Made by a program: the position numbers and the translations under genes. The notes beneath the pieces are model-generated. The model saw only the letters and a list, made by a program, of their open reading frames with translations. It had not been told where the DNA came from and searched no databases. DNA of 64,000 nt. Source: Schmidtea polychroa. Lineage: Eukaryota. Shown here in pieces: positions 34,434 through 61,009 of the stretch. Positions within the stretch are counted from its first letter, which is position 1. Every line of letters begins with the position of its first letter. The stretch lies in NCBI GenBank assembly GCA_044892525.1, contig CM097885.1, positions 59,396,001-59,460,000 of the forward strand, given 5' to 3'.

Positions 34434-34434
<1 letters not shown>

Positions 34435-36150: not shown

Positions 36151-36770
36151 GTCCAAATTAAGGTTTATTAACATATAATCTAACTACGCTCACAGTTGCA
36201 TAGTGTTGGCGGGTGCACTACCCGGATGACCCCCTTCAGTAGCGCGTTTAGTCTAGAGGATGAATGCCCATATCGCTTACACTCGTCTTGTTTTTGGTCA
36301 TCGCCGAGCAGGACCCGTACATAATCTACCCTCCAACATAGCACCCGTGAATCGCTTCACGTTGGAACTGTGCTATGCCGGCGAGACGCCAGTAGGCAGG
36401 TGAGCCACCTCCTTCGGACTACTCCCTACTGAGGCCTCGACTTCCTAACCCTGACGGCCGATAGAAGGACTTACGTCTTTTCATTCTGTCGCCCACCGCA
36501 AGAGTTTCCGCTGGGATTACTAATTGACCGATGCTCCTCATTTTTCCGAAAAATTCTCAATGCTATTTACTAATCCCTTATTATTTCCCAATCACAACAA
36601 ACAGGATAACACATACATAAACGAGAAATTTTTATTATTAAATTTACTATACAAACACCTCGAAAATTTATACACGGAAATTTACACGAACTGAATAACA
36701 CCAAGGTAGAAAACGACATCAGAAAAGTTCAATCCTCTACGGAGAAGGAGGCCATGTTTCGGGAAAATCC

Positions 36771-37514
36771 TCATTTCTCCCACTCCGAGTCGGCGAGTAA
36801 CTCGTCCAGATTAAAGAACTCGGCGGCGTTTTCCTCCCACGTCGCCCCGGCGGCGGAGATGACTCGCCCGGAGATCCCGGTTGTTGGGACGACCACCGTT
36901 AGATCACTATTGTTGCTGACTGGAGCGTTGATTGACGAGGTACACTGCTTGACAGATGCCCGTTCCCGTTGTTTCCGTTTGCGTTCAGCTCGAGACAGCT
37001 GTCGACGCTTAGACTTTGAGGAGGTGATCGTTTGTATGGTTGATGAGGACGCGAGATTTAGCTGGACCTTACTGGTTCCGGTGAATACAATCTCTGGGTC
37101 TTTAGGAGAGAGGTCGGACTCTACACATCCATGGCAAGACTTCGCGAGTGGAGACGAAAACTTAACAGAAGTATCATGGTGCGCTGGGAAGAGATTACCG
37201 GCTTCGTCAATTGGGATCTTCGCTATTTTTCTAGTGGTCGCCGCTTGTATGTATAGTTTATGCAGTGCTTCCGACTGCTCTTTTATCAGGCTCCTCTGTG
37301 CTCGACTTTCGGAAATGAGAGCATCACGACAGTGCTCGCTTCGATACAATTTCTTTTGGGTCTCCTTCATTTGCGTGGGACTAAACCATGTCCCCTCCAA
37401 CTCATCGATCTTCCTTTTGTACTTTCCAATTTGCGCTTGTAGATCCCTGATAACTGAATTCTTGTCCGAGCAAGAAAAGCAAGGTTTAAGAATGTTGTTG
37501 GCACTTGAAGACAT
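36771..37514 (-). CDS. LTR-encoded 247-aa protein (CxxC, coiled coil, basic patch, acidic-hydrophobic C-terminus)
   Basis: ATG ORF in element sense, intact in both LTRs; CFSC, CHGC, KRRQLSRAERKRKQRER, EFFNLDELLADSEW. Confidence 0.65.
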   Translation of the reverse strand: MSSSANNILKPCFSCSDKNSVIRDLQAQIGKYKRKIDELEGTWFSPTQMKETQKKLYRSEHCRDALISESRAQRSLIKEQSEALHKLYIQAATTRKIAKIPIDEAGNLFPAHHDTSVKFSSPLAKSCHGCVESDLSPKDPEIVFTGTSKVQLNLASSSTIQTITSSKSKRRQLSRAERKRKQRERASVKQCTSSINAPVSNNSDLTVVVPTTGISGRVISAAGATWEENAAEFFNLDELLADSEWEK

Positions 37515-39593
37515 CTTGAGTAGCTATGAAGAGGAAATGCGAATAAAATCAAACTAAGTCAAAAGTGAGACATCATCATCTAGTCACACTCATACCATAC
37601 TGATCATAGATTATCATACTGACAAAACGAGTTTATTAGCCTGAAGAGATTTCATTACCCTACAGATCTTGTACGCTTGGGGTCATTATTTATACGAGAG
37701 AGGATCATTCATGCAAGATTTTACCGAAGGAAAGTAAGGTATTATCCTGGATAAGGGAAATTACAGGTTGATGAAATTACAATTTGATCAATTTACCTGA
37801 AAACAGTACCTAACATTTAAAGAGAGTTTAAATTAAATTATAGATTTACCCCAAGACAAATAATTTGGATGTGTAGATCTTATGCATGGATAGGCGATTT
37901 ATCTATAAATTAATTATTCAACATAAATAAGACTCTATCAATTGCTCTGCAATTATTTGTTTGCGATACGTAAAAGTTTGTTAATTAATTTGCACTTGTT
38001 CAGTTGTGAGAAAATCAGAATGATTAAAACAAAGTTGAATATTTAAATGAATTTAACCACGTGTACCCAAAATGTCTGTCTGGCCGCTATCTATCATTTC
38101 TGATCGGTGAGAAAATCGGGTGACTGTCAGTAGTATGTTTCAGTGAATTATGTTTCAGCTGACGCGTCAGGTTGGATTTCCTGTGATTAACAGTCTGTAT
38201 AATCTACATATTGCGAGTAGCCTCTGTGATTATTCTAAAGCGCATGGCGCATGAAAATTTTCTCTCACCTACTTCTACTTAGTCATAATCGCTGACTGAT
38301 GTCTTCATGCTCTATGCTATGCCTGTGTATGCATGCAGATGTATTTTCCCTTATGACATATTACATCACTGACGAACCATGTATCTACCTCTAATGCTGC
38401 CTGCTATCTCTCATGGATATTTTGGAAAAACCGGATTTCTACATCATCAATATTGGAATTAATTCACGATCCCCCAAATATGATTTACCAGCTCGTCTCG
38501 TGGCCCTCTATCACTATCAATGTACGCCGGCTACTGCTGTCAAATTGGAGATTCATTACTTATCCCAATGCTGGATTTTCCACTCGACGGGATGTGGACA
38601 TTTTATGTTTTACTGGGTAAACATTATTCTAATAAATTATTTTTTAGAGAAATACATTTTTACTGATTGGAGTTGTTCGCTTTTATTTTAATGATTATTT
38701 ACACCCATTTAATTATGTGATTTCATACAATTTCATCTCTGAGAGGACATATAGCCGATGGGAATAGCGATTTCGCAAAAATCGTTAGTTGAAAATTTCA
38801 AGATTAAATTTCTAGCGAATTCGAGAACTACGGCAACTATAGCACTACCAAGGTTGGACGGTTTTGTTAACGCAAAACCTGCCTAGATCTACTGGATGAT
38901 AAAGAAGAATTTTAACTTGATCAGACGCTGTTATAATACGCTAGTGCGACACCCTCAATCACTGCGCGAACATATCAAAATTTCTCCTATTGATCGATTC
39001 ATTCTCCTATCCTACTTCCTCGTATGAATTTTCATAGAATTTAGTCACTCCCTCAGCGACGGACCCGTGAGGAAGCCCCCACATTACGGCCCGAATCAGC
39101 TGCGTGATTGAAAAGACCCCATGTCCACCGGCTGAGCTCCCGAAGGCACCTCGCACCATGACATGGAGTATCTCAACACCACGTTTCTCCAAAATTTTAA
39201 ATATCATAAAATCAACAAATAATAAAAATTCTTTTCATTCATAATAAAATATTTATTACCCAATTACTAAAACATTTAATTAAGTAAAACCTTCAAATCA
39301 AACGAAAAGAGAAAAATTATTATTAAATTTAGACTACTATAAATTCATAAATATACATGATCGTTGCATGGTAAACCTAAATAATGGAAAAATCCCTTAC
39401 CAAATTTTCAAATAGGCTGGATCGAAAAGTTCTGAACAGAATTGGTTAATACTAGAATAGGTTATAGAATTGGTTGAGTTTCCTGAATTCCTAGAATAGT
39501 CCTGGCAATGCTTTTAGTAAAACTGTGGCTGTCGCTGTGAATTTTGGTTTCTAATGTAGTGGTTAGATGAACGGTAATGGTTAATTAAAATAC

Positions 39594-39681
39594 ACTTACC
39601 TAATGTAGTGGTTAGATGAACGGTAATTGTTATGATTTTAGTGTCTGCTTATATATTAGTTTTCTATTTATGCGGACCAAT
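39594..39681 (-). promoter_or_regulatory. Candidate LTR promoter (CCAAT, TATA) and splice donor
   Basis: CCAAT 39677-81; TATATAA on minus 39655-49; AG|GTAAGT on minus 39601-39594; 28-bp direct repeat 39551-78/39600-27. Confidence 0.5.
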
Positions 39682-40310
39682 CAGAATGGAGTACCGCTTA
39701 TTTTTATTACTTTAATTTGTTTTCCTTGTTTTTGAGTTATTTCTTCCTATTTTCTTTATTTTTATTGTATTTTTATTTATTTTCTTTAATTTCCTTATTA
39801 TTTACTGCATTTTACGTCATTTTCCGTCATTTTATTGTCCTATTTCAATTTTTCGTGTTTTTATATTTTTTGTTTTAATTCTTATTTTCTAATTATTGTT
39901 TTTCTTATTTCCTTTCTACTTTGTTGCGTAGATTTGTTTATTTTATTTTTATTTTTATTTTTAATTTTTGTTTCGTTATGCTTAACCTAATCTCTCAGAT
40001 ACTCTTCGACTCAGCCCAACAAATCACTCGGGGACCCGACAAAATTGCGTCCCGCAATTACATACTTGAGTTACTCTTATTCTCTCAAAAAAATAAGCAC
40101 ATTCATAAAAAGATAACATAGTGATTAACAAAATTATAAACATCAATAAAAATTTTATTAATAAGATATAGGTCAAATCAAGACCAAGCAGGCATCACTT
40201 ATGGTGATGGTTTATATACACAACAAAGTTTTTCACAACATAGTGTTTTTAGTTCAGTTCTGGCATTGTTTGGTCACTCTGGTGGTTCTGGTTGGGGTTT
40301 GCTGCTACAA

Positions 40311-40922
40311 TTACGAACTGGTGTTATGGTAGATTGGGCGATTGGACGATGGTTGAGGAGATTCTTTATGGTTTAGTCTGGGTGAGCTTGTGGTTTGGAT
40401 AACCTTGGTTATTTCGGCTGGGTTTTGTACGGTGGCTCTGGATTTCGAGCTCTGACATTTTTTCTTAACTTCGAGGATTTTTAGGAAGGTTATGAGGCAT
40501 AACAAGATAGTTTCTGCGATCACTACGTAGAGAAGGTAGTGGGTGTCGCTGTTATTTGAGGGTGTTTCTGTTGTCTCGGCCGGATTTTCGAACACTTCTT
40601 GTTGTATTTGTTGTTCCAACTGATCGAAGTGTTGGACTTGTTCGAGTATTTTTCGGTCCATCATTCGGCATATGGGGTGATTTTTGCACAGACTTCTAAC
40701 GTTATTAACATATGACCGAGTTGACTGGATACTGTGGAGGATGTTGGTTTTTATTGTACTGGGGTATTGGCATTGGCAAGGTTCTGGTTTGGCTTTTTGG
40801 TTTCGATTGCGGTGATCTCGTATGCTTGTCAGTTGAGCGTTTAATTGTTGTTTCTCCATCAGGTGATTTATCAATACCATTACCGTTATCACGATTCCAT
40901 ACCGCATTGTACTAATATACAT
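40311..40922 (-). CDS. Small type I membrane protein, 203 aa
   Basis: N-terminal hydrophobic stretch, 4-Cys ectodomain (CQC, CKNHPIC), TM YLLYVVIAETILLCLITFL followed by KKK. Confidence 0.75.
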   Translation of the reverse strand: MYISTMRYGIVITVMVLINHLMEKQQLNAQLTSIRDHRNRNQKAKPEPCQCQYPSTIKTNILHSIQSTRSYVNNVRSLCKNHPICRMMDRKILEQVQHFDQLEQQIQQEVFENPAETTETPSNNSDTHYLLYVVIAETILLCLITFLKILEVKKKCQSSKSRATVQNPAEITKVIQTTSSPRLNHKESPQPSSNRPIYHNTSS

Positions 40923-40961
40923 CTATTATTATTATATTATTTACACTGGCTTTAATTGCTT

Positions 40962-41666
40962 TTAGTTAGATGGTTCTCCTTTGGGATTATTTTCGGCATT
41001 TCTCATCAGGGTAGATTCCGCTTCAATGACCCGGTGTCTTAATTCCGGCATCATCTCTAATTGCCGATCCTTTTCACGGGCTTCCCTTTTTAGGTGTCTT
41101 ATCTCCCTTTTTAGTTTGCTTATTTCTTCTCGTTTCTTGTCGAGATTTCTTCTTAACTCGATTTGTAGGAAGTCTTGTTCGTTCTCTCGTGGAGGGTTTC
41201 GATGTTGTTGTTGTCTCTCGATTTCTTTGTATTTGCGGATCCATTTTTTCATTTTTTCACTTTCTCTTTGTTTTTCTTCCACTTGTTGATTTAATTTATT
41301 TATAGTTGTTTGGCGTTCTTTCGCCTCTGTTTTCCAGTAGTCTTGGATTACTTCTTCTGCTTTGAAGCTTGCCCTTTCTTGCCATAATTCCTCTGCAATC
41401 CTTTCCCAATTTCTTCCTCGTGTTCGTTGTTCCTGCAGCCATTCATTTCTCTCTTCTGCTTCTCTCTTTACTTTTCCTAGCACTTTGCATTCTTTCTTTA
41501 ATACTTTAATCATTTTCCGGTCTTCCATATATTTGTTCACTAATCTCTCGTTTTCTCGTTTCTCTTCTCGTAATTCGCTCTTTAGTATTTGTGTTTCTGC
41601 GACTTCCATTACAATCTCTCCTTCTTCTATTTCACTCATGGGTTCAACTATCTCTTCAATCTTCAT
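40962..41666 (-). CDS. Coiled-coil protein, 234 aa
   Basis: ATG ORF, E/K/R-rich heptads. Confidence 0.8.
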   Translation of the reverse strand: MKIEEIVEPMSEIEEGEIVMEVAETQILKSELREEKRENERLVNKYMEDRKMIKVLKKECKVLGKVKREAEERNEWLQEQRTRGRNWERIAEELWQERASFKAEEVIQDYWKTEAKERQTTINKLNQQVEEKQRESEKMKKWIRKYKEIERQQQHRNPPRENEQDFLQIELRRNLDKKREEISKLKREIRHLKREAREKDRQLEMMPELRHRVIEAESTLMRNAENNPKGEPSN

Positions 41667-41838
41667 ATCTATAATATTTACAATTAATCATGCGCTACAG
41701 TGCGACTTATACTTATACATTTATATCGTTTTTATTTACACAGGGTTACAGTCCCTCAAATACTTTTACTGTACTATTAATTTTTTTTGTTTGGGATATA
41801 GTCCCAATTTTTTTGAATTTTGAATTTTTTATTAGCCC

Positions 41839-42894
41839 TTATACAAAGGTTTCCTCCTGACCCCCGTATCCTTCATCGCTCTCGCCCGCTGCCTGTAGTT
41901 GGATGGCAATAGGGTCATATGGTATGTAATATTGGGGAATTTGAGCTCTTAATTCATTAACTTCGTCTCTTAGAGCTCGAGTGATATTCAGCTCTTCGTC
42001 GAGCAGATAAGTGAGATACCTTGTCTCTTCGTCTTTCGCCTCTACTTGTCTATCTAAGGCCTTGATTTTCTCGTCACCCTTCCATTTTTCAATTTCTATT
42101 TCCAAGTTTTTGATATTTTCGGTATACATTTTCCTCTCATTTTCTAATTTTCTGTTTTTTCCCGCTAGGACCATGTTTCTTTGTTCTAACGATCCTTGTA
42201 GTCCATTAAGGTCTCTTTTCATCTCTTCGACCTGATTTACTAATTCCACAACCCGTCCTGCTTGTTGGGTTATCATCTCTTCCATTGCGGCATTCTCGTG
42301 CTCTCTTATGTCGCATTTTATTGCCAAATGTCGCTCAAACTCCATAGCCTTTGTTTGCCAGGTTTGGCTTCGGGCTGCGACCTTTTTCAACCGTTTCAGT
42401 TCTTCCTTTATTATTAAATTTTCCTCCCATTTACCCTGTTCGCTCTCATATCCGAGTCTCATGGGCAATTCTTTCATCTCTTTTTTCATTTCACTATTTT
42501 GTCTTTTCCATTTTCTCGCTTCTGCTACTAAGTGCATCATTTTCCTTCCTTCTATTTGCCTTTCCGCTTCGCGCTTGGTGTTCTCATCGGTAAGTCTCTT
42601 TCTCGCTTCCTGCACTAGCTGCTTTAAGTAGTGGCTGTGCGCTTCTTGGCGGGTATTTTCTAGTGACGCCCATTTTGATGCTCTTTTGCATGCTTCTGCT
42701 TCCGCTCTTAAGTTGTGTATTAACCATTGGTATTGACTATTCTCATCCTCTCTAGCTCCTTCGATGTGATTTCGGGTGAGATTAGTTAGTTGGAACATTA
42801 CTTTGTTCCATTTTTTGTTATGTTCTCGGGGAATTTGTGTTTTGTTGACATTGGTTGGGGCTATCGCAGTTTCGGTTAGTTTCTCTTGTGTCAT
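41839..42894 (-). CDS. Coiled-coil protein, 351 aa
   Basis: ATG ORF, long heptad stretches, short Tyr/Pro and acidic tail. Confidence 0.85.
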   Translation of the reverse strand: MTQEKLTETAIAPTNVNKTQIPREHNKKWNKVMFQLTNLTRNHIEGAREDENSQYQWLIHNLRAEAEACKRASKWASLENTRQEAHSHYLKQLVQEARKRLTDENTKREAERQIEGRKMMHLVAEARKWKRQNSEMKKEMKELPMRLGYESEQGKWEENLIIKEELKRLKKVAARSQTWQTKAMEFERHLAIKCDIREHENAAMEEMITQQAGRVVELVNQVEEMKRDLNGLQGSLEQRNMVLAGKNRKLENERKMYTENIKNLEIEIEKWKGDEKIKALDRQVEAKDEETRYLTYLLDEELNITRALRDEVNELRAQIPQYYIPYDPIAIQLQAAGESDEGYGGQEETFV

Positions 42895-43088
42895 CTCTAA
42901 ATCATAGACATCGATTAATCTTTTTATTATGAAAAAGGAATTTATTCATTATTTGCTGTTCCTTTGGAAATTTTCGCATCATTTTTGGGTTTACGTATTT
43001 AGGGTTTTTCATACTATTATTATATAATATTTTATTGGTTATATACGCCGATATATACAGATTATTATATACAACATTATTCGATTGG

Positions 43089-44477
43089 TTACTCCGTTCT
43101 ACCCTTCTCCTCTTTCCTCACGGTCATCTTGATATACACCGTGTCATTTCTTGCCATATCTTCTACTTTTTGTTGTAGGATGAACGTAGGTGCTCCTGTT
43201 GCTGATCCTTCTTCTTCCGTAGGTCTCTGGTAACACATTTGGTTTCCAGTTGTCTTGAAGCTTTGTTCGTGGATGCTTCGGTCATTCATTAGTGCAATAT
43301 CGATTTTTGCCTGGAACGGCCACTCTATTATTTCGTCGTATTCCCCTTTACATAACAGAAAGAAAATCGAAAAGTGCGTATCTAATCCGGTTCCGTCCCC
43401 GTTGGGATATATCTTCATTTTCATTTTGTACCCATTCTTCCAAAAATGGAATGCAGGACTTGTTATTCTTGTCTCTTCTCCGGTTTTTGCTTTTCGTATT
43501 CTTTCTTTTACTCCCGTTATTTTCCATATGTAGGGTGCCGTTGGGGTTATCTCATTTAGATTTATTTCCCGTATTTTCTGATGTAGCTCCTTGGCCTGAT
43601 CATTACTGATTTCTATTCGGTTTATTTGCATCTTTATGTTTGCTCGGGCTTCCTCGAACGCTTCCCTTTCTTCTAGTAGTTCTTTGACTAACACTTTCAA
43701 CGATGTTATCTCTATCTCCATTTGTTTTACTTTCCCTTCGCTTTCTTGTAACGCAGTCGACCACATTTCTGCGTGGGTGGAAGCATTTTCTACTAAATGG
43801 TGTGGTAACTCCCCTCGGTGTAATAGTTTCTGACAACCCCATTTACCTAGTACACATGTCATTCTTTTCCTTTCACATTCCCTTAGATGCTGTGCCACCT
43901 TCATTATTTCCCCTTGGTTACATCCGTTTGGGCATTCTCCACTGAACTCTGCACATACTCTCTCCTCTTGGACATTGTGATGTTTGAGGGTGAGATTTTT
44001 CCACGTATCTATTTCTCCACAGTGTTCACATCTTTCCAATCTCTCTTCACACTGCCTTTGATGTTCTTTTTCTTCGCTTGCTCGAATGGTTTTATGGCAC
44101 CTTTCACACTGGCCGATTCTGTACATACATTCTCCCATATGTTGTACTACCTTCCAGATTACTCCTTTCCATTCGCATGGGGCATTTTTGCATCCCAGGT
44201 TGGTGTTTAACATGTCTTTCACTGCGGCTTTATCTTCGTTAGTGTCTTCTAAACTCGATATTCGTGTTTCTTTACACACCGGGCACCACTGTGGTCTATT
44301 TTTTATTGCTTCACTGATACATTCTTTACATACTCTGCATCCACATTGAGTTTGGTGAGGTTCCTTTAACAACTTTTCACATATTCCGCACATAACATGT
44401 TTGTGTATTCTGATCGTTGTAGATTTTCGGACTTGCTCGACAATCTCTCTGAACTCTTCTCTTTGTCGTTTATCCAT
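43089..44477 (-). CDS. Full-length TRAF-family protein (RING, TRAF zinc fingers, coiled coil, MATH)
   Basis: CGIC..CGC..CKEC..CPVC RING; several CxxC..H..C fingers; MATH motifs YIWKI, SPAF, GYKM..IYPNGDG, HFSIFF, EWPF. Confidence 0.93.
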   Translation of the reverse strand: MDKRQREEFREIVEQVRKSTTIRIHKHVMCGICEKLLKEPHQTQCGCRVCKECISEAIKNRPQWCPVCKETRISSLEDTNEDKAAVKDMLNTNLGCKNAPCEWKGVIWKVVQHMGECMYRIGQCERCHKTIRASEEKEHQRQCEERLERCEHCGEIDTWKNLTLKHHNVQEERVCAEFSGECPNGCNQGEIMKVAQHLRECERKRMTCVLGKWGCQKLLHRGELPHHLVENASTHAEMWSTALQESEGKVKQMEIEITSLKVLVKELLEEREAFEEARANIKMQINRIEISNDQAKELHQKIREINLNEITPTAPYIWKITGVKERIRKAKTGEETRITSPAFHFWKNGYKMKMKIYPNGDGTGLDTHFSIFFLLCKGEYDEIIEWPFQAKIDIALMNDRSIHEQSFKTTGNQMCYQRPTEEEGSATGAPTFILQQKVEDMARNDTVYIKMTVRKEEKGRTE

Positions 44478-44561
44478 TCTATAATTATATGTACATATAG
44501 TTCCTATCGATACAGGTTCGATATTTTATTTACAATTATTTACATTTAAGCTAGGTTTGGT

Positions 44562-44921
44562 TTAGGGTTCGGAAGAGTCGGCTTCGTGTCCGCTCTCCTC
44601 TCTATTCATTAGCCATTCCGACCAGTCTTCTATTTCTATCTGTTCTGCTTCCTCCATCATTCGGTCTAGTTCAATTTCCTGTCTACGGCTATATTGGGTT
44701 ATCCTCTCTATCTCTCTTTGCATTTGTTCGATTTTCAACCTCTGGTCTTCAATTATCTTCAAATAACTAAATCCTCTATTCATACTCTCAATTAGGTTTC
44801 TGTGCATCGTTAATCCTTGTTCTTGCAAATTGGACACTAATTGTGCTAATACGGCACATTGTTGCTTCCATAATTCTTCAGTTACTGTATTGTGGTTCAT
44901 TTCGTTATTTCCTTGATCCAT
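44562..44921 (-). CDS. Short coiled-coil protein, 119 aa
   Basis: First ATG at 44921 (track starts at TTG 44945); helical, acidic tail. Confidence 0.65.
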   Translation of the reverse strand: MDQGNNEMNHNTVTEELWKQQCAVLAQLVSNLQEQGLTMHRNLIESMNRGFSYLKIIEDQRLKIEQMQREIERITQYSRRQEIELDRMMEEAEQIEIEDWSEWLMNREESGHEADSSEP

Positions 44922-45081
44922 TCTTAATTTATATACACTTTTCAACTCTTATTTAAATTTAATTTTATTTTATGATTCCCGTTATTGTATAATATTGATA
45001 CCGCGCTTATATAAAGATATAGTACTGTTATATACATAAGATATACTTACTTTTTACAATTATATACAGTCATATTCCTTC

Positions 45082-46806
45082 CTATATACGTGAGTTTGGA
45101 GGGCGCTGAGCGTTCCAGGCCTCCACCCACTGTTCTTGTTTGATATCACTTGGTCGTTTCACTCGATGTTGGAAATTTCTGATTCGGGTCATCTCTAGTT
45201 CTCCGCGATGTCGTTTATCTTTAATTATTTTTATTGTTCCCCCCGTTATGATTAGGAATGCCCCTGTTATTATTATCCCACTGATCCACATCATCTGCTT
45301 CACGCTTATACTCTCTGGTTTTTCCTTGTTTGTTAATGTTACTATTGCTTCTGTACTTTTCTCGTTTCCTCTTTTGCCATTTCCTTTCATCATTTCCCGT
45401 ATTCTTGCTATTTCCTCGTTCATACCCTCCTTTGCCATCTTTTGTATTTTTTCCATCTCTTCCTCCGAAACATAGTTGTCCTGAGCTTCCTCACCGGTTT
45501 TCTTGTGCTTTCCGCCTTCGTCCTTTTCGTCGTGGTTTTTTCTTTTCTTTCCTCTTTTCCCCGGGTATCGTCGGCATTCTCTTTTTGATTCGTTCCTCCA
45601 GATGCAAACCGTGTATTCTTTCGGCGGCTGCTGCTGCGTCACATATTGATGGCATCTCTCACCTGGTCCTAATCTTGAAATACAGACTTTGTGCTCTTTT
45701 CTAGGTTGGAGCTGCGTTATTACTACTTCACCACCTTTTCCTAGGTGTACCTCTTTTCCTTTAACGTTCGTTATTCTCTTCCCGTCCCGATTTCGGTATG
45801 CTTCTTGTATTCTTACTTCTGTTATTGGTTCTGTGTCCTCATTTATCAGTACTAGTTTTTGATACGCTCTAGACATGCATCTTCCTAGTATGCACCTTTC
45901 CTTTAAGTCCCATTCTTCCTTTAAATCCCACTGCTGCTCTTGTGCTTGCTTTTTCTTTTCTTGTTTTAGTTCATCCTCTTTGCTATCTTGATTCTCCGCT
46001 TCTTTGGTTTCTTTTATCGTTCTCGTCCCTCCATGAGCTGTTACTAACTCTATCATGGTGAGCATAATTATCATTAATATCATATTTGTCTCTATTTCTT
46101 TGTTAGTGAAAGGTAGGCATACCTTCTGTTTTCCATTATTCGGTTTTTCCTCCTCTTTGGTCTTGGTTCCCGGGCTGTTTCCCTCTCTTTTCGTATCCAA
46201 ATCCTTGTTTTCCGGTTTATCCTCTTCCGGTTCTCTTTTCCCTTTATCCTCTTTTCGGCCTTTTCCGTCATTGTCATCGTGTTTATCTCCCCCGCTGTCG
46301 TTTAAAATGTCGTCCTCGACATTTATATCGTTCAATAATCTGCGATATGCTGTTAGCACTCTGTTTCTTGCTAATTTTGCTTCGAATTCAAACTCTTTTC
46401 TACCCGTTGCAGCATGTCTCTTTCTATTCCATTCTTTAACTAACTCTCTTAATTGAATACGACGATGTTTTCCAATTCGTTGTTGCTCGTTCTGATTTTG
46501 CGTGAATTTTAGGTCTTCTCTATTTAATATTATTAAAATAATTTTAGGCGTCCCCCCTTTAGTTAGGGTATTCCTTACCATTGCGTTTTCTCCGTTTTCG
46601 TAAAATTCGTTTATATTTATCGCATATTTATTACTTTGTGGTATTCTCCATGTTACTAATAATTTCATTGCTTCTAGATTTTTCCGTATCGTATTCCATT
46701 GAAATTGAGATGTGTTTCTGCATATATTTTCAACTTCTTCTTTTGTCGCATTTTTGCAAATAAATCTGATCATTTCTAAGTTCGGCTGTATGGTTGCCCA
46801 GTCCAT
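45082..46806 (-). CDS. Ankyrin-end / internal signal peptide / FN3-like ectodomain / TM protein
   Basis: Frame is open upstream of the ATG as an ankyrin repeat (LHILHQSGSRLDEKSNEGNSTMDWAT); MILMIIMLTMIELVTA signal-like; VVITQLQPRKEHKVCI FN3-like; TM MMWISGIIITGAFLIITGG. Confidence 0.8.
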   Translation of the reverse strand: MDWATIQPNLEMIRFICKNATKEEVENICRNTSQFQWNTIRKNLEAMKLLVTWRIPQSNKYAININEFYENGENAMVRNTLTKGGTPKIILIILNREDLKFTQNQNEQQRIGKHRRIQLRELVKEWNRKRHAATGRKEFEFEAKLARNRVLTAYRRLLNDINVEDDILNDSGGDKHDDNDGKGRKEDKGKREPEEDKPENKDLDTKREGNSPGTKTKEEEKPNNGKQKVCLPFTNKEIETNMILMIIMLTMIELVTAHGGTRTIKETKEAENQDSKEDELKQEKKKQAQEQQWDLKEEWDLKERCILGRCMSRAYQKLVLINEDTEPITEVRIQEAYRNRDGKRITNVKGKEVHLGKGGEVVITQLQPRKEHKVCISRLGPGERCHQYVTQQQPPKEYTVCIWRNESKRECRRYPGKRGKKRKNHDEKDEGGKHKKTGEEAQDNYVSEEEMEKIQKMAKEGMNEEIARIREMMKGNGKRGNEKSTEAIVTLTNKEKPESISVKQMMWISGIIITGAFLIITGGTIKIIKDKRHRGELEMTRIRNFQHRVKRPSDIKQEQWVEAWNAQRPPNSRI

Positions 46807-46835
46807 TGTGGAGTTCCCTTCGTTTGACTTTTCGT

Positions 46836-47285
46836 CTAGTCTCGATCCTGATTGATGTAGTATGTGGAGTGTTTTGGGTGTATTTTCGTTATAGCTGCAT
46901 ACATCATGGCGGTTTCGCCTTGTTCATTTTTCGTGTTGGTTTCCTCGCCCATCTCCCCAAGGATTCTCATGATCGTTATTGCTCGATTCTCTTTTGCAGC
47001 TAGTATTGCTTGTTGTAGAGGTGTTCTGGAATCCTTTGTTACCATCGTAAATGCTCGAGGCAAGAAGGTTTTGATTTTCCCGATATCTAAACCCGTGGTT
47101 TGATCCCTTGCGTATGTGTGTACGGCTTTTATTATTTTGGACAATATTATTTCGTCTGGCAGCTCTAGCATTTCCTCAAAGAATACTTCTTTTGCTTTGC
47201 GTATTATTGCCTCTTGATTTGGTTTCGATGACGTTGTTTGTGACCGTTTGGTTCGTTGTTGACTTTGGTTCCTTGGATTTCTCAT
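46836..47285 (-). CDS. Ankyrin-repeat segment in a shifted frame
   Basis: TPLQQAI...EMG..TNTKNEQGETAMMYAA; overlaps the 47176 ORF and the upstream in-frame extension of the 45082 ORF. Confidence 0.7.
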   Translation of the reverse strand: MRNPRNQSQQRTKRSQTTSSKPNQEAIIRKAKEVFFEEMLELPDEIILSKIIKAVHTYARDQTTGLDIGKIKTFLPRAFTMVTKDSRTPLQQAILAAKENRAITIMRILGEMGEETNTKNEQGETAMMYAAITKIHPKHSTYYINQDRD

Positions 47286-48084
47286 ACCTTATTTTCGTTT
47301 TCTTTCCGTTTGGATTATTGATTCGTTCCTCTGCTGTAAGTATTTGGATAATATCCAGGTAATTCTCGCGGATGTTATTCATTGTGTCCATCATATATAA
47401 CACACTTACCGTTTCCCAATATTTATTTCGTACTTGGCTAGTAAATTGGAATATTGATTTTTCGAATGTGTCGATTCGCTTTTTTGCTAACTGTTCATCT
47501 TTATGATTTGTGAATTTTATCCCTCGTTCTAGTAATTGATTCGGAATTTCGAATAAATGATGTCCTTTCATAGCTTCTCTCATCAGCGTGTTCTCTCCTT
47601 TGGTAAACGTTTCGTTTATATCTACCATATAATCGTTTCTGATCGGGTTCCTCCATGCAATTAGTATTCCAGCAATTGTTATTAATTTCTCTTTGATTGC
47701 AGTTAGTAACCCGTCGTACATGTTTCCTATCTCCCTATTATCCTCGTACGATAATAGATCTACTAAGGTTATGAAGGCTTCCGCACTTTTCCCTTCGATT
47801 GCATGATGCAGTGCGTTTTTCTGATTGCGATCTTGTGTGGTTATTTTTGATCCAGTTTCAAGTAATGCGATAATAATATCTTTAGCTTTATCCCGATTGG
47901 CTGCTATCATTAGTGGAGTGTAACCTTGGTTGTTTTCTTGATCTGTCGAAATGTTACAGTCGCGAAATGCTTCAATTGTCTCTAGTATTTGTTCATTATT
48001 ACCAACCTTTAAAAGTTTGTGTAGTGGTGTATCTCCGTAGTGATCTGTGATTGTGAATAATATAGGCCATTGACTTTTAACCAC
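47176..48084 (-). CDS. Ankyrin-repeat segment in frame with the polyprotein, after its TGA
   Basis: GDTPLH, GYTPLMIAA, KNALHHAI, GENTLM; track start is GTG and the first ATG is at residue 59. Confidence 0.85.
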   Translation of the reverse strand: MVKSQWPILFTITDHYGDTPLHKLLKVGNNEQILETIEAFRDCNISTDQENNQGYTPLMIAANRDKAKDIIIALLETGSKITTQDRNQKNALHHAIEGKSAEAFITLVDLLSYEDNREIGNMYDGLLTAIKEKLITIAGILIAWRNPIRNDYMVDINETFTKGENTLMREAMKGHHLFEIPNQLLERGIKFTNHKDEQLAKKRIDTFEKSIFQFTSQVRNKYWETVSVLYMMDTMNNIRENYLDIIQILTAEERINNPNGKKTKIRYEKSKEPKSTTNQTVTNNVIETKSRGNNTQSKRSIL

Positions 48085-48102
48085 TCTGAGTAATGGGTGT
48101 GT

Positions 48103-51100
48103 TCATTCTCTGTTCGCATAATTTTCGATCATCGTCAATAATCCTCCTAATATTTCGAAATCTAATCGATCTTTTGCCCATCCGGGTAGTTTTATCTTTA
48201 CCTCTCGTACGATTTTTTCCGCTTCCGATGGTTGTATGCCCGATCGTCCAGTGATCGGTTCTGCGAGTTGTTGCATCATATTCATTCTGTAAGTTTGCGA
48301 ACGTGTGGTTAATGTTCGACCTTCCGGTTGACTGGTGGCGGTTTTTGGAATTGATTTACATCGTGCCACGTTTACGTATATTGGCCTGGTGAATGGATTA
48401 TTTACCAATTTCACTCTTACATTGGTTTCGCCTACAAATAGAATCTCATATGGTCCTTTTCCGTTGCGTTGTAACTTTTTTGTGGTTCCTGGAATTAATT
48501 CCGGGGTTTCTATCATTACCCAATCACCTGTTTGAAACGTATGTTGCTTCACGTTTTTCTTTCGATCGTGTAAATCTTTATAACTTTCCTGGTAGAACTT
48601 GATATTTAATCCCGCAGTTTCCCAAATTTCTTGCATCCTTTCCTTGAATTTCGTAACATAATCATCGATCTCCATATACTGCGATATCGGTGGTTGGTAT
48701 TCCAGGTCCATTGGCATATTACATTCTCTTCCGTACATTAATTTGAATGGGCTCATTTTTGTTGATGCGTGAATCGACATTCTGTACGCCATAAGACATA
48801 GGTTTATATATTCGTCCCAATCTCGTTGGTGACGGTCGACGTAGTTTGATAACATTTGTATAAGCGTTCCATTAAATCTTTCCGTCATCCCATTGGTTTG
48901 AGGGTGATATGGAGATGTTCTTAGTTTTGCTATTTTGAAGTAATTTGTTACTTCGCTCATTATCTCACTCATAAAATTAGTTCCCTGATCGGTTAATATT
49001 TGTTTTGGTGTTCCATATCGGCAACATATCTCTTCTACCAAAATTTTTGCGATTGTTTTAGCTTTTTGGTCTGGCATCGCGAATGCTTCTGGGAATTTCG
49101 TAAGAAAGTCTGTAATCACTAGAATGTAAACGTTTCCTTTATCTGACTCTGGTAGTGGACCAACTACGTCCATGGATATCATTGTCATTGGTTCTATTGG
49201 TACTGGCATTGGCGTTAGAGGTGCTTTCCATTTCGATCCAGTATTCTTCCTGGTTGCACAAGTTAGACAATTTTTCACCCATTCGGTTACATCTTCAGTT
49301 AACGTAGGCCAAAAATATTTCTGTTTCATTCTTGCTAACGTCTTTTTCGATGACATATGTCCTCCCAATCTCCCATCGTGATATTGCGTTAGTAACTCTT
49401 TTCGTCGGTTTTCCGGTATACACATTAATCGTTTTTCCCCATCCATTATCAGCAGCCAATCTTTCTCTATAATATATCGGTGTCGGTGTTTATCCATATG
49501 TTCTTTTAATTTTTGGTCTTTCGCATATACATCTGTCTTTCCGGTTTTTACATACTCGATAATTTGTTTTAATTCCGCGTCCTCTTGTTGGTCCTTTCGC
49601 AATTGACAGAAATCCAAATCTTCCGCTACCATTAAGCATATGCGTTGCATTTCTGAATCCACCAAATCTGGGAAAATAAATCTTGACATACAATCGGCGT
49701 TGGCATTTGCTCTTCCTGCTTTGAATTTTATAAATGGGGAGTATTCTTGCAATTGCATAGCCCATCTCATTAGTCTACTGGACGCTTCTTTATGTTGCCC
49801 TAACCACACTAATGGTTGATGATCTGTGGTTATGCATATCTCATGTCCCCATAGTAAATATCGGAAGTGTTTGATAGCTTGTATTATAGCCAATGCTTCT
49901 CGTTCTGTTACCGAATAGTTCTTTTCGTGCTTTTTGAATGTTCGACTGTAATACCCGATTACTCTCTCTTTTCCTTCATCGTCTAATTGTCCCAGAATCG
50001 CGCCTGCCGCGTACCCGCTTGCATCCGTTGCCAATAGAAATGGCTTCTTAAAATCTGGGTGTACGAGGATAGGTGCTTCGATTAGTTTATCTCTCAGCGT
50101 TTCGAACGCCTGTTGTTGTTCTTTTTCCCAAATGAACGAAATATCCTTCTTTACTAATTCCTGGATTGGTTTTGCAATTCCTGCATAATTTTTGATAAAT
50201 TTGCGATAGTATCCGCATAATCCTAGAAATTCCTGAACTTGGGTGACAGTTTTCGGTGCTGGACATGTTTTTATTTTCTCAATGTTTCTTGGATCTGGCT
50301 CCTTTCCTTTAGCTGACACTATGTGTCCTAAAAACGTGACTTTTTCCTTTGCCCAATCGCATTTTGAAGGTTTGAGCTTGAGTTTCCATTGTCTTAATCT
50401 AATAAATACATTTCGGATATCCTCCAGATGTTGTTCGAATGTCGCTGAATAGATTAGCAAATCATCAATATATACCATACATTGTTTGATTCCATGAGTG
50501 ACAAAGTTCATACACCGTTGAAATGATGCTGGTGCATTGGTCAGTCCGAATGGCATCTTCCGGAATTGATATAGATCTCGTCCCAGCGTGAAAGCTGTTT
50601 TCTCTTTGTCCTCATCTTTGACTTTAATCTGCCAGTATCCACTTTTTAGATCTAAAGAAGTAAAATATGCTGCCCCTTCCAACATCAATAACATCTCATT
50701 GATGTCCGGCAATGGATAGGTATCTCTCTTGGTTACTGCGTTTAACTTCCGATAATCGATACAGAATCGTTGGGTGCCATCTTTCTTTTTTACCATGACC
50801 ACTGGGAATTGCCAGGGTGAGCAACTCGGTTCGATTACTTTTGCGTCTAGCATCTTTTGTACTTCTGCTTCAGCTATTTCTTTTTGCATTTCTGCTAGCT
50901 TGTATGGTCTTAATGCAATTGGAGTTTCATCTATGAGGGGTATTGCATGTAGGGTAACATCGCATGTACCCAAGTCTAAATCTGAGATGGCGAATATATC
51001 TTTATATTCTACCAACAATCGGTGCAATTTTTTCTTTTCATCATTCGTCAACAACATACTATCTATTGTCCATAATTCATCATCTTTGATCATTTCGTGG

Positions 51101-54100
51101 GTCACTTTCGGTAATTCTATGTCTATCATTGGGGTCAATCTTCCCAATTTTTCGTTCTCATAAATGATTTTGTCTTCCTCTTCGAAATTCGTGATGTTGA
51201 GCGGTATCACTCCTTCTTGGTTTATTGTGATTATTTCCCTTGCGAGTGGTAACTCTCGTCGCTTTTCAAATGACTTGCTTGGTTCAAAGATAACTTCTCC
51301 TTCCATACCCGTATCCACTTTTATCTGACAAATCATCTGCGATTTTGCTGGTACTATTATTTTTTCTGGACATCTGATTACTGCATTCATTTTGCATATT
51401 CTACCGGTTTTGTCTTTTAAACACATGGTTGTTAAATCGATCACCACTTCTTTTAATAATTCCGGCATCAGGTCCGTTCCGATTATGCATGGTACGCTAA
51501 GTTTTGGTATTACTGCCAAATACGTTTCAATTTCGTTGTCCTGGTATCTCAATGTAGTCCACCATCTTCCGACCACGTCCACCGTTTCTTTACTACATGC
51601 TATGATGTAAATTGTTGTTGATTCGATATCTTTCCAGTGCTTACTGGGGATTTGATTAATCGCTATCGCTGATACATTAGCTCCGGTGTCTATCATAGCA
51701 TTGGTCTCTTTACCATTGATTTGAATCATGACTGTCACTGCTGGACCTCCAGGTAAACTCATCGCTGCTATTGTTCTTACGTCATCTGCTTGATCTACAC
51801 TTTTGGTACGTCGTGTTGGCATATAATGCATACCGGGTTGACTCGGTAATTGCGGATACATGTTTTGTGTCATGGTCAAAGCTGCTTGTGGTCCCACGAT
51901 ATCCGGTGGTATATAGCTTCCATTGGCGATCCAGGTGTTTGTCTTTTCCTTTTCCCAATATGGTGCTGTTTCCATTGGTTTTTCGTTTGGGTTTCTGGTT
52001 GGATATAGACATTTATCGTTCCCGTTATCATCGTCGTCACTATCGCTGTTAGATGATTGACTTCTAAATCGGTCCAAAAATTTTGGCTTATTCTTTTTCA
52101 ATTGTCGTCTTGTTACTTCATCGTACATTACTTTCCGGAATCGTCTGCCCACTTCCTCGTCGGTTCCTTTAATCTTTGTTAGAATTTTAATCAATCGCTT
52201 TATCCGATGGATGTCTTTTGAGTGACCATGTAATACCATGGTTTTAGCTAAAAATGGTAGAAAGCCTACTATCATTTTCCAGTTAACTTTCTTTTCCCGC
52301 TTGTATATATCAAAACAAGCTAACATTTGTGTTAATATTACCCTGACTATCTGAATTATGAGTATGATCCCTAATATCCCGGCCATCATTTGTCCAAAAA
52401 CTAAGAATCTTCCCCACATTGCTTTCATCATGTTTGATGTGGCTTGTTGAAAATGGTCTGGCGATAGTAGCAGCTCGTAATTCGGGCCTGATTGATAATT
52501 TGTTCCCCCCGTTATTGTAACCATATTTGACAAAATGGATTCTCGTCTGGCTGGGAAGAGTACGTTAAGTCGTGCTGTTTCTAGATCTTCTGGGGAATAC
52601 ATACCACCGTTTGACACGTCTATAGGTTTGAAATCCAGCTCTGTGGCGAGTTCTATTAATCCAAATTTCTTGGGTTCCTCGGATATGGTTTTTCCCGGTA
52701 GCATCATCCATTTCCCATCGGGTCTTTCATATAAAGGTCCGTATGCATTAGAACAGTTAAAGAGATTTGGGTAGAAACCCACTGGATTCATAATTCTCGT
52801 GACTGGTTGGACGAATCGATTTTGTCCCTTATAACGGATTTCTAATTCGTTTGCACATCTCTTTTCGGGTAGTATGGATTTTTCTGGCATTCGTGCATAC
52901 GTCTTGGTACACTGGTATGTGTACATCACTTCTCCTACCATTCTACCAAAATGTCCGTCTGGTAATGGGAGTGATGGCATCGTGTTATCTGGGTGTGTTA
53001 TCGCAATAGCTAGCTTTGTTTTCAATATTTCTTTATTCAATGAACAATCGTTTTGTATCAGATCGTAATATACTTTTTGCAAGGTCGTTTGTCCGCGATG
53101 AAATAGAAAATCCATTTTATTATTTGCATATAAGTATAGTTTTACGTCCTCCGTTGCTATCTTTCCCACTGCTCTATCGATTATTTGTCTCGACATATAG
53201 ATACCTGCGTAATTGGTTTTATATACTATACTGTCACATTTGGTAGTTTCTTTCTCTTTGATAAATCTCATACCTAGATCTGGATCGTCCGTGATTAATG
53301 CTGTTGGTGTCTTCTGCGTTGAGAGTCTCTTTTCTCTGGGAGATGGTGGCATTGGTTTTCCATTTCGCATTCTCACTCTGTCGTTTCCATCCTCGTCGTT
53401 CTCGTTCTCATAAATTTCTCCTTTTACTTCATTGAACAAAGCACTTTTTAACAGTTGGAGTCGGCATTTTTGGGTATTAGCTTCATAGATTATAGTTGAT
53501 ACTCCTGTCCTGCATACGTTTTCTGTAGCTCTACACGCTGGGTTGGTCTTCATTTGGTAATTATTTGCGTCAAATTGCGCTTCGTATTCCTTTAGTTCAA
53601 CCGTATAGGACTCAATCACTACTACCCCCGATATTACCTCGCCTCGGATCGTATACGTACCTCCGTTACATGACCCATCTGATGATTTTACTTTTCCGGA
53701 TACGTAAACGCTTTCGGTTTTAATCATTCCAGTTTGTCCGTGAATCGTCACTCCGTTATGCATTTTTAGCGCTCCGGTTCTAAATAGCTCTTTACAGTCC
53801 TCTCGTTGTATTGATACGATTTCTTTATCCAGACCGGGTAGTATAAGAGTCGAATACGAATATTGTCCACAGTAATATGCGAGTACCTTTTTTGATACTA
53901 CGCATTCCCTTGCTTGCGTTCTGATGAAATCTGATTCTTGATATACATGGTAAGTAACTTTTGTTCTTACTATGTCTAATTTGTTGGGTGATGCTTGTCT
54001 GCATTCTTCTATGTCTCTCAATGAGTATTTATCTCTCATTATCATATTATCACAATCGTAGATGGTAAAACCCGTTGCTCCACTTGTGCACAACATCCAT

Positions 54101-57100
54101 ATCATCATAGTCATCATTAACGAATTTATCGATGCTTTTCGGCTTGCTGGGTCTTTCATGGGTAGTTCCCATTCTAGTTCATTCAACAACTTCTTCAATC
54201 TAACTTGCATCGACCTTTCTTGCTCATTTTTTCGTGGCGCTTGTATCAGTCTTTTCCATCCTCCGGCACGAATAATATGTGGTTCAATAGTATTCTCTAT
54301 GATTGAAACAGTTATTTCCACGTGATTTGCAAATTGTTTATTTGGTATTTTCCTCGCAGCTAGTCCCATCAAATTATACATCAAATAAGTGATTACCACT
54401 AGATGATGTTCGTCATCATTTGCATTTGTCGTGAGCTGTTCGATCACTCTCTTCGTTTCGTCCCAATCTGTTTTGGTGGTTTTCGTTTTCTCTTTGATTA
54501 ACTTTGGGATTATCCCCGAAACGATGTGCCATAATTGTCTAGCTTCCGTACTGGCTACTTTCCGTTGCCACAAACGTCTAAGTTGTGGGTTTGTTATTAT
54601 TAACATATCTTTGATCAATTCTCGTATCCATTTTTCTCCTCTTTCAATCGTTGGTTGGGCTTCCTTTAGATCCCATACTATTTTATCCAATTTTTCTAAT
54701 CGAACTTGCCCTTGTTCTTGCTTTAATTGTTCTTTGGTTTTAAACTCAGACTTTTCTCCTTGTTTCTTAGGTCTTCCTTTTGCCCGTTTTTCCATCATCG
54801 TTCCGGCTTCTCTGGTATTTTCGTAATTCGGATTTCTTTCGTTATCCGTTCTGGGTAATGAGCTATCGTTATTTCTTAGCCACTCATTCCATTCATCTAT
54901 TATTTTATCGGTTTGACCTTCTGGTGTTACTTTCGTTGGTTCTCTTTGTTTCTGGAATTGTTCATCCGTTTCGGTTTCCGTAGTATTGTCGATGATTTCT
55001 TTGATGTTTAGTTTCGTTGGTTGTTGATAACTCGTTGAAGGCTGGTTATTAGTCCACATTTCGGCTCCTGTCGGCCATCTCACTAATAGCGGTGATCTTT
55101 CTCCTGGTTCATCGTCACTATCTTCCAGGATTATCTCTTCAACTTCTTCAGTTTCATTAGATTTACTTGGTGGTTTGTTCGGACTTGGAGTACTCAAACT
55201 GCCTTTTGTTGGTTTAGTAATTTTACTTTTCCTTTTTAACGGTTTCCCCAACGTTTCTGCCATTGTTAATACATTTGTCTCTTCCAATCTCATGGGTGTT
55301 ATTCCGACGTCTGCATTATCGTCTAGTGATTTTCCGAACAGTTGCAGATGGAATGGAGTTTCATATGCTAATTTCTTTTTTAATTCTCTAATTTTTGTTG
55401 TTGGATGCACCTCTAGTTCCTCGATGCTCTTGTCTGGATACTTGACTCGGATGTGATACCTCTCCTGAGTGTCTTGTGCCCATTCCTGATTTCTCCATTT
55501 TCGAATAATTTGTTCCAGCTGTTCTGGATACCATTCATTATATTGCCGGTATTCCTCTATTGTTTTCGCCATTTCTCTCAGATTGTGGATGTTCTCTGAT
55601 GTCTTTAAGATGATGTTAGCCAACGCTACTACTTGGCGTTTTTGGTTTTTCGCTCCCATTGCTAAGATATCGCCTAATTGTTTATATCTTTCTTTCTCTT
55701 CTCGTTCTCTTGCTTCCGTCGCTTCCTCGCCGTCCATATCAGCATATTCACGTTCCTTTTTTCTCATTGCATGAATATGTCTCGCTTCATTTTCGCTTTC
55801 TGATGTGACATCCGTCTCGCCTTCGTCATCTGATGTCTGTTCCCTTGCTTCCTCTTCATATTCTGGAGGTTCCTCTTCTTCTTCCTCCGATTCACTTTCT
55901 GTCTCACCAATGTCTGTTTCTACGAAGATTCCTTTCTGGATTTCCCATTCCTTATTTTCTGCATTCCACACTCTTTCCCATGGGGTTCGTCTGCAGGATC
56001 TGGTATTTAGTTTCGTGATTTTTCCTTGTAGTTCTTTTTCTTTTAACCATTGTTGGTGGATTTCAATTATTTCTGTAGATTTTTGATATAACGTTTTCAT
56101 CCGGTCTCGTATTTCTTTTTGATAGGTTACATCTCTTGTTCGAAATTCATCCATTGGTACTATCCTGATTATCTGATGATTGTCCCACATACCCATTTCG
56201 CTTAACGAGGTGTCGTCCTCCGCTCGTAATATTATTTTATCGTACATCATGACTACATCATCCACCATACCATCACTACTTTCGCTACGTACCTTTTCCG
56301 TTATCTCTTGGTTTATTTTTGATACCAAGTCATCTACTGTACTCTGATTGCTCATTTTTATTCGTCGTTTTTCTTCGTTCGGTAACCATATAGTTATTTC
56401 CAACCTCTGTGGCTGGGTTTCTTTTAACCTTCCATATTTGTGGATTAAATTTATGGTTCTCCAATCACTCATCCGGAGCATTTCTGTATCTCGCAATCGG
56501 CTCATTAGTTCGTACATGGCTGGGGCTCGTCTGGTGATGAGTAAATCCCAGTTGTCTTCTACTTGTTCTTGAATTTGTTTGATCAGCTTATCCAGGTTTC
56601 GTCTCAAAGTACATTGTTTTATTTGTTCTAATTTCAATTTAATATTAAAATCATATTCTGCCTTGGCATCTTTAGCCCAATCGTAAAGGTTGGCTGGTTG
56701 TTTTTCTTTATGCAACTTCAGTATTTGCGTTTCTCCTGGCCATATTAGTGCATCTACTAAGTGCATATCTGGTTTGATCTGTTCTCCTTGGTATTGATAC
56801 AGATATTCTTTCTTTCTCGAACTTCCCAAATGTTCCCGTATCCAATCGAAAAGTTCGTCGGTGACTGTATTTTTTATCCACATTCTTTCAAGTCCTCTAC
56901 TCGTTCCGATTTTTATTACATACCGCGTGGTATCGGCCTGCTTCATTTTTTCCATATACTTTTTTATAATTGATTTTTCCTCGTTTGGTATTAAATCTTT
57001 CTCGTTTCTTTCCAATTTCATCACTTTTTGTACGAATCGCCTGAATGGTATTACATCGATGAACTCTTGGTTCCTCACTACTACTGGGAGTATTTCGGCT

Positions 57101-60286: not shown

Positions 60287-60508
60287 TTACGACTGGCTGG
60301 CACTATTCAACAGCTCAATCTTCTTCCTTCTGACCGGTTGGACTATTCAACAACTCGATCTTACGACTGGCTGGCACTATTCAACAGCTCAATCTTCCTC
60401 CTTCTGATCGGTTGAACTATTCGACAACTCAATCTTACGACTGGCTGGCACTATTCAACAGCTCAGTTTTCGTTTCCCTTGACCGGCTGGACTATTTACA
60501 GCTCGGCT
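60287..60508. repeat. 3 x 74-bp tandem repeat in the 5' leader
   Basis: TTACGACTGGCTGGCACTATTCAACAGCTC at 60287, 60361 and 60435; each unit holds two related sub-units. Confidence 0.92.
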
Positions 60509-60991: not shown

Positions 60992-61009
60992 ATCCCGGCT
61001 GAGCCCCCA
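60992..61009 (-). promoter_or_regulatory. Primer binding site, tRNA-Pro type
   Basis: Minus TGGGGGCTCAGCCGGGAT, 16/18 to the MLV tRNA-Pro PBS TGGGGGCTCGTCCGGGAT; 7 nt from the LTR. Confidence 0.85.

Follow-up and report, generated by a model that had tools for sequence, protein, structure and literature searches.

We found a complete TRAF gene between the two LTRs of a giant Burro-type retrotransposon in the window, by which we mean the whole 64-kb stretch of DNA that was analysed. All four modules of the encoded protein are intact, it groups with planarian-type TRAFs, its silent sites have the composition of the element's own polyprotein gene, and its all-cysteine RING is inherited. Our preferred reading, which we hold to be rather probable, is that this is an old accessory gene through which the element acts on host TRAF survival and immune signalling, by means of a trimeric adaptor that is perhaps also a ligase.

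Table 1 Coordinates of the TRAF-bearing element and its parts within the window.
Feature	Position	Strand	Basis
5' LTR, cut by the window end	61017..64000	-	direct repeat
PBS-like 18-mer starting TGG, 7 nt from LTR end	60992..61009	-	
Polyprotein, Gag-(UBL-like, Bcl-2-like)-Env-PR-RT-RH-IN, 3720 codons, first Met 58920	48103..59265	-	Pfam
Ankyrin-repeat region after pol, in frame beyond stop, then other frame	46836..48102	-	
ORF without family match, containing two hydrophobic segments	45082..46923	-	Pfam
Accessory ORF, 119 aa, no family match	44562..44921	-	
Spacer before TRAF, 84 nt; TGTA[ACT]ATA at 44544, 44534, 44495; one AATAAA	44478..44561	-	
Full-length TRAF ORF P0001, 462 aa	43089..44477	-	frame translation, Pfam, PDB matches, model, Foldseek
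C4C4 RING, ligands C30, 33, 45, 47, 50, 53, 65, 68	44274..44390	-	Pfam and alignment
Cys47 codon	44337-44339	-	alignment
Five TRAF-type zinc fingers, aa 96-235, 20/20 ligand positions	43773..44192	-	alignment
Coiled coil (TRAF-N), helix aa 232-303	43569..43784	-	AlphaFold model
TRAF-C/MATH domain, aa 316-453	43119..43532	-	Pfam, PDB matches, Foldseek
Spacer after TRAF; TGTA[ACT]ATA at 43073, 43059; three AATAAA	42895..43088	-	
Charged, probably coiled-coil accessory ORF (351 aa), without family match above cut-off	41839..42894	-	
Charged, probably coiled-coil accessory ORF (234 aa), without family match above cut-off	40962..41666	-	
Accessory ORF of 203 aa with a single strong transmembrane segment (aa 127-145)	40311..40922	-	
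3' LTR; 36204-39187 by identity to 5' LTR, end 40062 candidate	36204..40062	-	direct repeat, terminal TG

The frame at 43089-44477(-) runs from ATG to TAA over 462 codons with zero internal stops, and its product is confirmed as a TRAF2/3/5-type protein. The initial annotation had described it as a complete TRAF captured by a retroelement, with all four modules intact and CGC where C3HC4 RINGs have CGH, and this description was borne out: RING, five zinc fingers, coiled coil and TRAF-C are all present, the fourth RING ligand is Cys47 at a position held by His in TRAF2, TRAF5 and TRAF6, and the ORF lies between LTRs in the accessory cassette of a Burro-type element. Pfam recognised the RING as zf-C3HC4 (aa 30-68, 21.4 bits, cut-off 21); its fourth zinc ligand is not the His of C3HC4 RINGs, which makes it C4C4. 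Pfam zf-TRAF gave no match on the protein; in the alignment the fingers have TRAF2/3/5-type spacing, and none of the 28 zinc-ligand positions (8 in the RING and 20 in the fingers) is empty. The RING-finger region aligned to solved fragments of TRAF5 and TRAF6 (E 4.8e-14 and 9.4e-14, respectively). The AlphaFold model (mean pLDDT 80.9) shows a continuous helix of 72 residues at aa 232-303 (pLDDT 89-96) and a beta-sandwich at aa 316-455. Over aa 316-453 the TRAF-C domain matched PF21355 (E 7.8e-26) and PF22486 (E 2e-25) in Pfam, and solved TRAF1, TRAF3 and TRAF2 domains in the PDB comparison (E ~1e-27). Foldseek with the model returned TRAF1 (E 2.8e-14) and the N-terminal domain of TRAF6 (E 4.8e-12), and the Atlas search also gave TRAFs (0.98). 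No other TRAF copy or host remnant was found elsewhere within the 64-kb window, and the protein had no match among phage records.

The element that carries this gene is a very young copy: its direct repeats (36204-39187 and 61017-64000) are 99.9% identical, with 3 mismatches in 2984 nt, so that the intactness of the TRAF ORF in one copy proves nothing alone. The candidate 3' LTR start at 40062 has a terminal TG and a purine run (40074-40086) 11 nt away, and 7 nt separate the 5' LTR from the PBS-like 18-mer, which we take to be tRNA-Pro-like; such gaps are usually shorter than these two. The PBS is echoed in part at about 60908-60960, and the leader holds a 74-nt tandem repeat in 2.8 copies (60287-60496). 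A Met-less frame of 106 codons with a hydrophobic segment (59259-59579(-)) begins directly after an acceptor-like site in the leader (59580) and extends into the beginning of the polyprotein frame.

LTRs, a PBS, gag and the PR-RT-RH-IN order are those of a Ty3/gypsy LTR retrotransposon. The size, 24,813 nt from LTR start to LTR start and ~28.7 kb in total if the candidate LTR end at 40062 holds, is that of the giant class (internal region up to 25 kb, total ~30 kb). The polyprotein contains gag at aa 167-260, env in frame at aa 1983-2322 and the protease at aa 2512-2603, together with CCHC knuckles (Pfam); the env match is to a mononegavirus-type fusion protein (PF24664, E 3.6e-70). Before env there are a ubiquitin-like match (E 0.003) and a Bcl-2-like match (E 0.04), both below the Pfam cut-off. 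By eye, up to three ubiquitin-like segments can be made out at 55186-56928(-), of which only the third has the weak Pfam match, and the Bcl-2-like stretch (54166-54708(-)) stands directly before env; it had no PDB match. The polyprotein also gave no match to dUTPase, to BIR (Pfam) or to MATH. An in-frame stop after the integrase leads into the ankyrin region, which changes frame twice towards the 45082-46923 ORF; in the relatives P0204 and P0194 the ankyrins lie inside the polyprotein, in P0204 after the integrase and in one frame. The stop and the frame changes of the present copy may be recoding sites, lesions or errors of sequencing. The ankyrins are followed by the membrane-protein-like ORF, for whose C-terminal part (45082-46806) the Atlas search gave no usable match, and then by five accessory ORFs, with TRAF as the second. 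Both 45082-46923 and 40311-40922(-) look like membrane proteins with cysteine-containing segments and have no family match. The TRAF ORF itself is on the polyprotein strand, downstream of pol and ~16 kb from the 5' LTR. The PxQxT/S/D motif, which we take to be LMP1-like, occurred in 0 of 10 ORFs of the element's own proteins. Neither tRNA genes nor Rfam families were found. The AT-rich flank contains hairpin and dispersed inverted repeats (573-749, 3727-3884, 893-1086 with 34434-34630, and 11040-11253 with 21832-22035), which are probably small DNA transposons. Two further frames are repetitive: one has 23-residue repeats with a 69-nt period and a weak STPRs match (18020-18622(-)), and the other, of 308 codons, has a 17-residue repeat and drew no match in Pfam (13122-14048(+)).

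An env between gag and protease, together with MATH_TRAF_C and ankyrin cargo (Pfam), is the Burro arrangement, and by this layout we class the element as Burro-type, env-bearing Ty3/gypsy; its host is presumably a planarian. The closest env-bearing polyproteins are 42-53% identical in pol. The env-between-gag-and-pol layout (PF24664) recurs in at least 20 polyproteins (P0194-P0213 and others; from ENA, JGI, Logan and NCBI), so the group of such elements extends beyond the named Burro families; for one of them, P0210, the label of a Flavobacteriaceae protein is probably wrong. A TRAF piece was present in 0 of 120 related polyproteins, a comparison confined to the polyproteins themselves. This rules out a TRAF fused into these polyproteins and shows that TRAF is dispensable in the polyprotein of the wider group.

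The homologue search, with one representative per 50% cluster, gave 156 proteins at E<=1e-30, and the best 150 of 156 were used. Among the matches listed, the best relatives with a single domain set are only 35-40% identical to the TRAF ORF; many proteins (P0003-P0013 and others) have TRAF-C in 2-13 tandem copies, in some cases together with RING or zinc fingers. A single-sequence word search matched 1 of 3520 candidates and a profile search 4 of 5773, so few relatives carry names. P0031 is the UniRef TRAF-5 of the planarian Dendrocoelum lacteum (T1D122), with Cys as the fourth RING ligand. Trees were built from 33, then 28, of 152 TRAF proteins picked by score, non-His RING, composition or outgroup role, a biased sample in which 55 lower-scoring His-RING matches stayed outside the tree, except for composition picks (P0044). 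The 28-protein tree puts the query and 16 compact TRAFs on one side of a branch supported at 100/100, and at 100 under two recodings, which places the query among planarian-type TRAFs. The stem common to element-like and host-like compact TRAFs is long (0.55, 100/100).

Five homologues among the matches listed have an A-rich amino-acid index of 3.3-4.7, compared with 1.49+/-0.25 (sd) in 145 other matches and with one more at 2.32, which groups outside the element-like clade. Together with the query, these five form a clade (99.4/100; 96 and 100 after recoding), and we infer that they are element-borne from a composition that can itself pull branches together. P0005 is complete, 33% identical to the query, and has 28 of 28 ligands, while 3-4 of the five are truncated or have deletions (P0002, P0017, P0022, P0148), so that some copies decay. 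The clade is sister to the group with the Dendrocoelum protein, weakly (81/73). In AU tests its placement as sister to all host-like relatives was not rejected (p 0.134) and its placement with TRAF2-like outgroups was rejected (p 0.001). Since TRAFs are pan-animal, host-to-element transfer is the simplest reading of the tree. Any reverse-transcribed gene ends intronless, and the intronless ORF therefore cannot tell mRNA capture from later intron loss.

At four-fold sites the TRAF ORF has A 0.51 and T 0.10 (n=140) and the polyprotein A 0.53 and T 0.12 (chi2 p 0.78 between them); three flank ORFs, a weak baseline because their nature is unsettled, have A 0.35-0.39 and T 0.27-0.33. The silent sites of the TRAF ORF have thus come to follow the bias of the element, with no loss of the frame or of any ligand. 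Element-type silent sites, an intact protein and the A-rich clade together point to an old capture kept by selection, and with the planarian-type grouping (100/100) they uphold the proposal of the initial annotation that this is host cargo kept under selection. The opposite view takes the ORF as a recent or neutral capture that rides without function in a young copy. It would fit with LTRs so alike that the copy has had no time to decay, with the several broken homologues, and with the stop and frame changes in the ankyrin region of the same copy. However, a gene of this kind should not have silent sites fully at the element's bias with its frame and all ligands intact, the low identity even of the closest matches listed argues that the capture was not recent, and the signals at the TRAF start codon are the same as those of the other cassette genes. 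We therefore consider a functionless passenger highly improbable.

The CGC motif had also been taken as a hint of lost E3 activity, with the protein as a possible decoy, and this interpretation did not hold. Of 15 proteins fetched by score, 10 have Cys as the fourth RING ligand, one has Phe, two have His (both fish-like TRAF2) and two lack the ligand. In the query's clade minus the query this ligand is Cys in 13/14, Phe in 1/14 and His in 0/14, and two clade members do not have the position; these counts were taken from alignments because a RING regex misreads CCG-x-H RINGs and misses some. CGC was also seen in five matches outside this clade. As it is common to host-like relatives, including the D. 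lacteum TRAF-5, the motif is inherited and not element-specific damage. In the accessible accounts of TMEM129 and CNOT4/Not4, C4C4 RINGs with eight Cys and two zincs belong to working E3 ligases, so that a His-to-Cys change is compatible with activity, and nothing more. CGC as a sign of lost activity is ruled out by the host-like relatives that share it and by these existing ligases.

In the alignment to solved TRAFs the RING has Ile32, Pro66 and Lys69, presumably in keeping with a normal E2 face. Glu34 comes directly after the second RING Cys, at a position that we take to be tied to E2 binding; TRAF6 has Leu there, and TRAF2 and TRAF5, which bind Ubc13 weakly, have polar residues. The serine-rich stretch of the TRAF-C groove, presumably tied to receptor binding, is altered relative to solved TRAF domains. 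Judged from these residues, E2 and receptor binding may differ from those of known TRAFs. Both changes could be claimed for a dominant-negative decoy that joins host TRAFs or fills receptor tails and, having no ligase activity, blocks signalling, as could the polar residues that the weak Ubc13 binders TRAF2 and TRAF5 have at the position of Glu34; a RING-less E3 can indeed act as a dominant negative, according to the accessible account of TMEM129. A decoy, however, needs neither RING nor five fingers, yet all 28 ligands persist in both the query and P0005, whose identity is 33%. Moreover, the inherited CGC still provides a zinc ligand, and the three E2-face residues suit normal binding. On balance, we regard the decoy as unlikely and retain the accessory gene with an intact adaptor.

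The spacers of the cassette, 39-194 nt in length, fit the flatworm operon criterion of <=300 nt that the available text of PMC12582326 gives for parasitic flatworms. An acceptor-like AG ends 0-2 nt before 5 of 5 cassette ATGs, as TAG in 4 of 5, with a chance probability of about 2e-5, and of about 5e-6 to 4e-5 when each spacer serves as its own background. In the spacer 44478..44561 the TAG ends 1 nt before the TRAF ATG, and in 42895..43088, which also encloses a 36-codon ORF (42902-43012), it stands 2 nt before the next ATG. The six cassette spacers (897 nt) contain TGTA[ACT]ATA 12 times in sense and once in antisense orientation; in the region 40063-45081(-) the sense sites are at 45068, 45036, 44937, 44544, 44534, 44495, 43073, 43059, 41740, 41682, 40945 and 40220. 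Shuffled spacers gave 0.6+/-0.75 occurrences and reached 12 in 0 of 5000 cases. It is the commonest degenerate 8-mer of the spacers; 12 occurrences of any pattern were reached in 3 of 500 shuffles, and of patterns with G or C in 0 of 500. Elsewhere the motif was absent from the upstream coding sequence (14,184 nt) and had a density of 0.21 per kb in the flank. It often lies 13-17 nt past a stop or 16-23 nt ahead of an ATG, a weak tie to starts and stops (P ~0.01) for windows picked after data inspection. The motifs and AGs of the spacers are possibly the most surprising feature of the locus.

The PUF consensus is UGUANAUA, and Pumilio is required in planarian stem cells (PMC5855632, accessible text). 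On the RNA strand and in the putative untranslated regions the spacer motif equals UGUANAUA, which makes it a candidate Pumilio response element. We found no literature joining Pumilio, UGUAHAUA and retrotransposons, in a search with thin coverage of subscription journals. Most probably the spacer signals would serve single-gene RNAs that are processed and controlled post-transcriptionally; TGTA[ACT]ATA may also be read as a TATA-like promoter, as a 3'-end signal of the CFIm type or as a branch point. The signals offer a first concrete model of how a 29-kb retroelement could express genes 15-20 kb from its promoter.

For the role of the protein, we propose that an ancestor of the element acquired a TRAF2/3/5-type gene, its RING already all-cysteine, from the triclad TRAF pool, and that selection on the element has since kept it whole. 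The protein would be made from a processed subgenomic RNA, using the AG before its ATG in leader cis-splicing or spliced-leader trans-splicing, and this RNA may be under Pumilio control. With its RING zinc-loaded, it would trimerise by coiled coil and TRAF-C and act on the TRAF survival and innate-immune signalling of the host as an adaptor and perhaps also as a ubiquitin ligase. Beside the Bcl-2-like, ubiquitin-like and ankyrin cargo, it might help element-expressing cells to stay alive. Such a role is in line with the many apoptosis and ubiquitin domains in Burro cargo (PMC6431247), the requirement of planarian TRAFs for cell survival (PMC7586133) and the precedent of a viral RING-TRAF, megalocytivirus ISKNV ORF111L, which acts on TRADD (PMC3352826), each as given in the accessible text. 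The published idea that Burro elements interfere with planarian apoptosis and ubiquitin signalling is thereby narrowed to one complete, testable protein. A bolder version would liken Burro elements to complex viruses, with an operon-like cassette cut at splice acceptors to give single-gene RNAs, gating by the stem-cell protein Pumilio, an active TRAF ligase of ancient capture that is produced in chosen cell states alone and steers survival signalling there, and a two-way TRAF exchange that feeds the planarian expansion; we rate it as a long shot.

The initial annotation had further suggested that mobile copies feed the TRAF expansion of planarians. Element TRAFs would then re-seed the host genome and form a real part of the TRAF/MATH expansion. 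Burro copies in the thousands (PMC6431247) would provide the source; the expansion was counted by MATH-bearing transcripts, 121 to 282, many of them partial (PMC7586133), and in a planarian RING-gene supplementary table 'TRAF' occurs 100 times, all as far as the available text of these sources goes. The long stem shared by element-like and host-like compact TRAFs, on which their order is unsettled, would also allow it. Against this, the element-like clade includes none of the 11 host-like compact TRAFs, and none of the 11 has its composition, in a sample of 50%-cluster representatives. The suggestion thus found no support, and we think a two-way shuttle decidedly improbable. Element genes may still swell planarian TRAF/MATH transcript counts, and the 'expanded' counts may include element-borne genes that can be sorted out by their A-rich composition.

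TRAF-domain cargo in Burro elements is already published: MATH_TRAF_C is reported in Burro1 to -4 of Schmidtea mediterranea and, in a separate, upstream accessory ORF, in a Burro-like element of Dugesia tigrina (PMC6431247, accessible text). What is new, although primary Burro descriptions may show a full TRAF, is the complete gene with its inherited C4C4 RING, together with the element-like clade and the signals of the cassette. For a full-length retroelement TRAF or for cassette spacers we found no literature, with coverage thin in subscription journals, and the accessible parts of PMC8532177, PMC11410931 and PMC13238120 hold no relevant TRAF mention. As described in the available text, Burro1/GYPSM1, Burro-2 to -4 and the D. 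tigrina element are, like ours, giant gypsy-like LTR elements that have env set in frame between gag and the protease, ankyrin repeats, a leader tandem repeat and MATH_TRAF_C cargo. Of the ubiquitin-like and Bcl-2-like regions that precede env in Burro elements we see matches below the Pfam cut-off, and of their dUTPase-like and BIR regions no match. The likeness to Burro elements is one of layout in PMC6431247 and not a sequence match to a named consensus. The TRAF cargo differs in place, being within ORF1 in Burro1 or in an upstream ORF in D. tigrina but downstream of pol here. It also differs in extent, since the accessible text of PMC6431247 names the MATH_TRAF_C domain only, whereas we see a whole RING-5ZF-coiled coil-MATH gene, and the polyprotein is about 3600 aa here versus 4873 and 5140 in Burro elements.

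The D. lacteum TRAF-5 has the same compact architecture and CGC RING and falls in the same clade, but is only 24% identical, and the A-rich retroelement composition and LTR setting belong to the TRAF ORF only. Smed-TRAF-2A/B were compared by primers only, the four published ones having 7-8 mismatches to the ORF. CNOT4/Not4 and TMEM129 share the C4C4 RING but are unrelated proteins. Viral TRAF-like proteins are among the BFVD fold matches of the TRAF ORF; those genes, including the ones of giant DNA viruses, are independent captures, with iridovirus matches at 16-21% identity. The nearest parallel in design is ISKNV ORF111L, likewise a host-derived RING, coiled coil and MATH protein in a mobile genome; unlike the 462-aa TRAF ORF it has 296 aa, is pro-apoptotic and has no finger array in its accessible description (PMC3352826).
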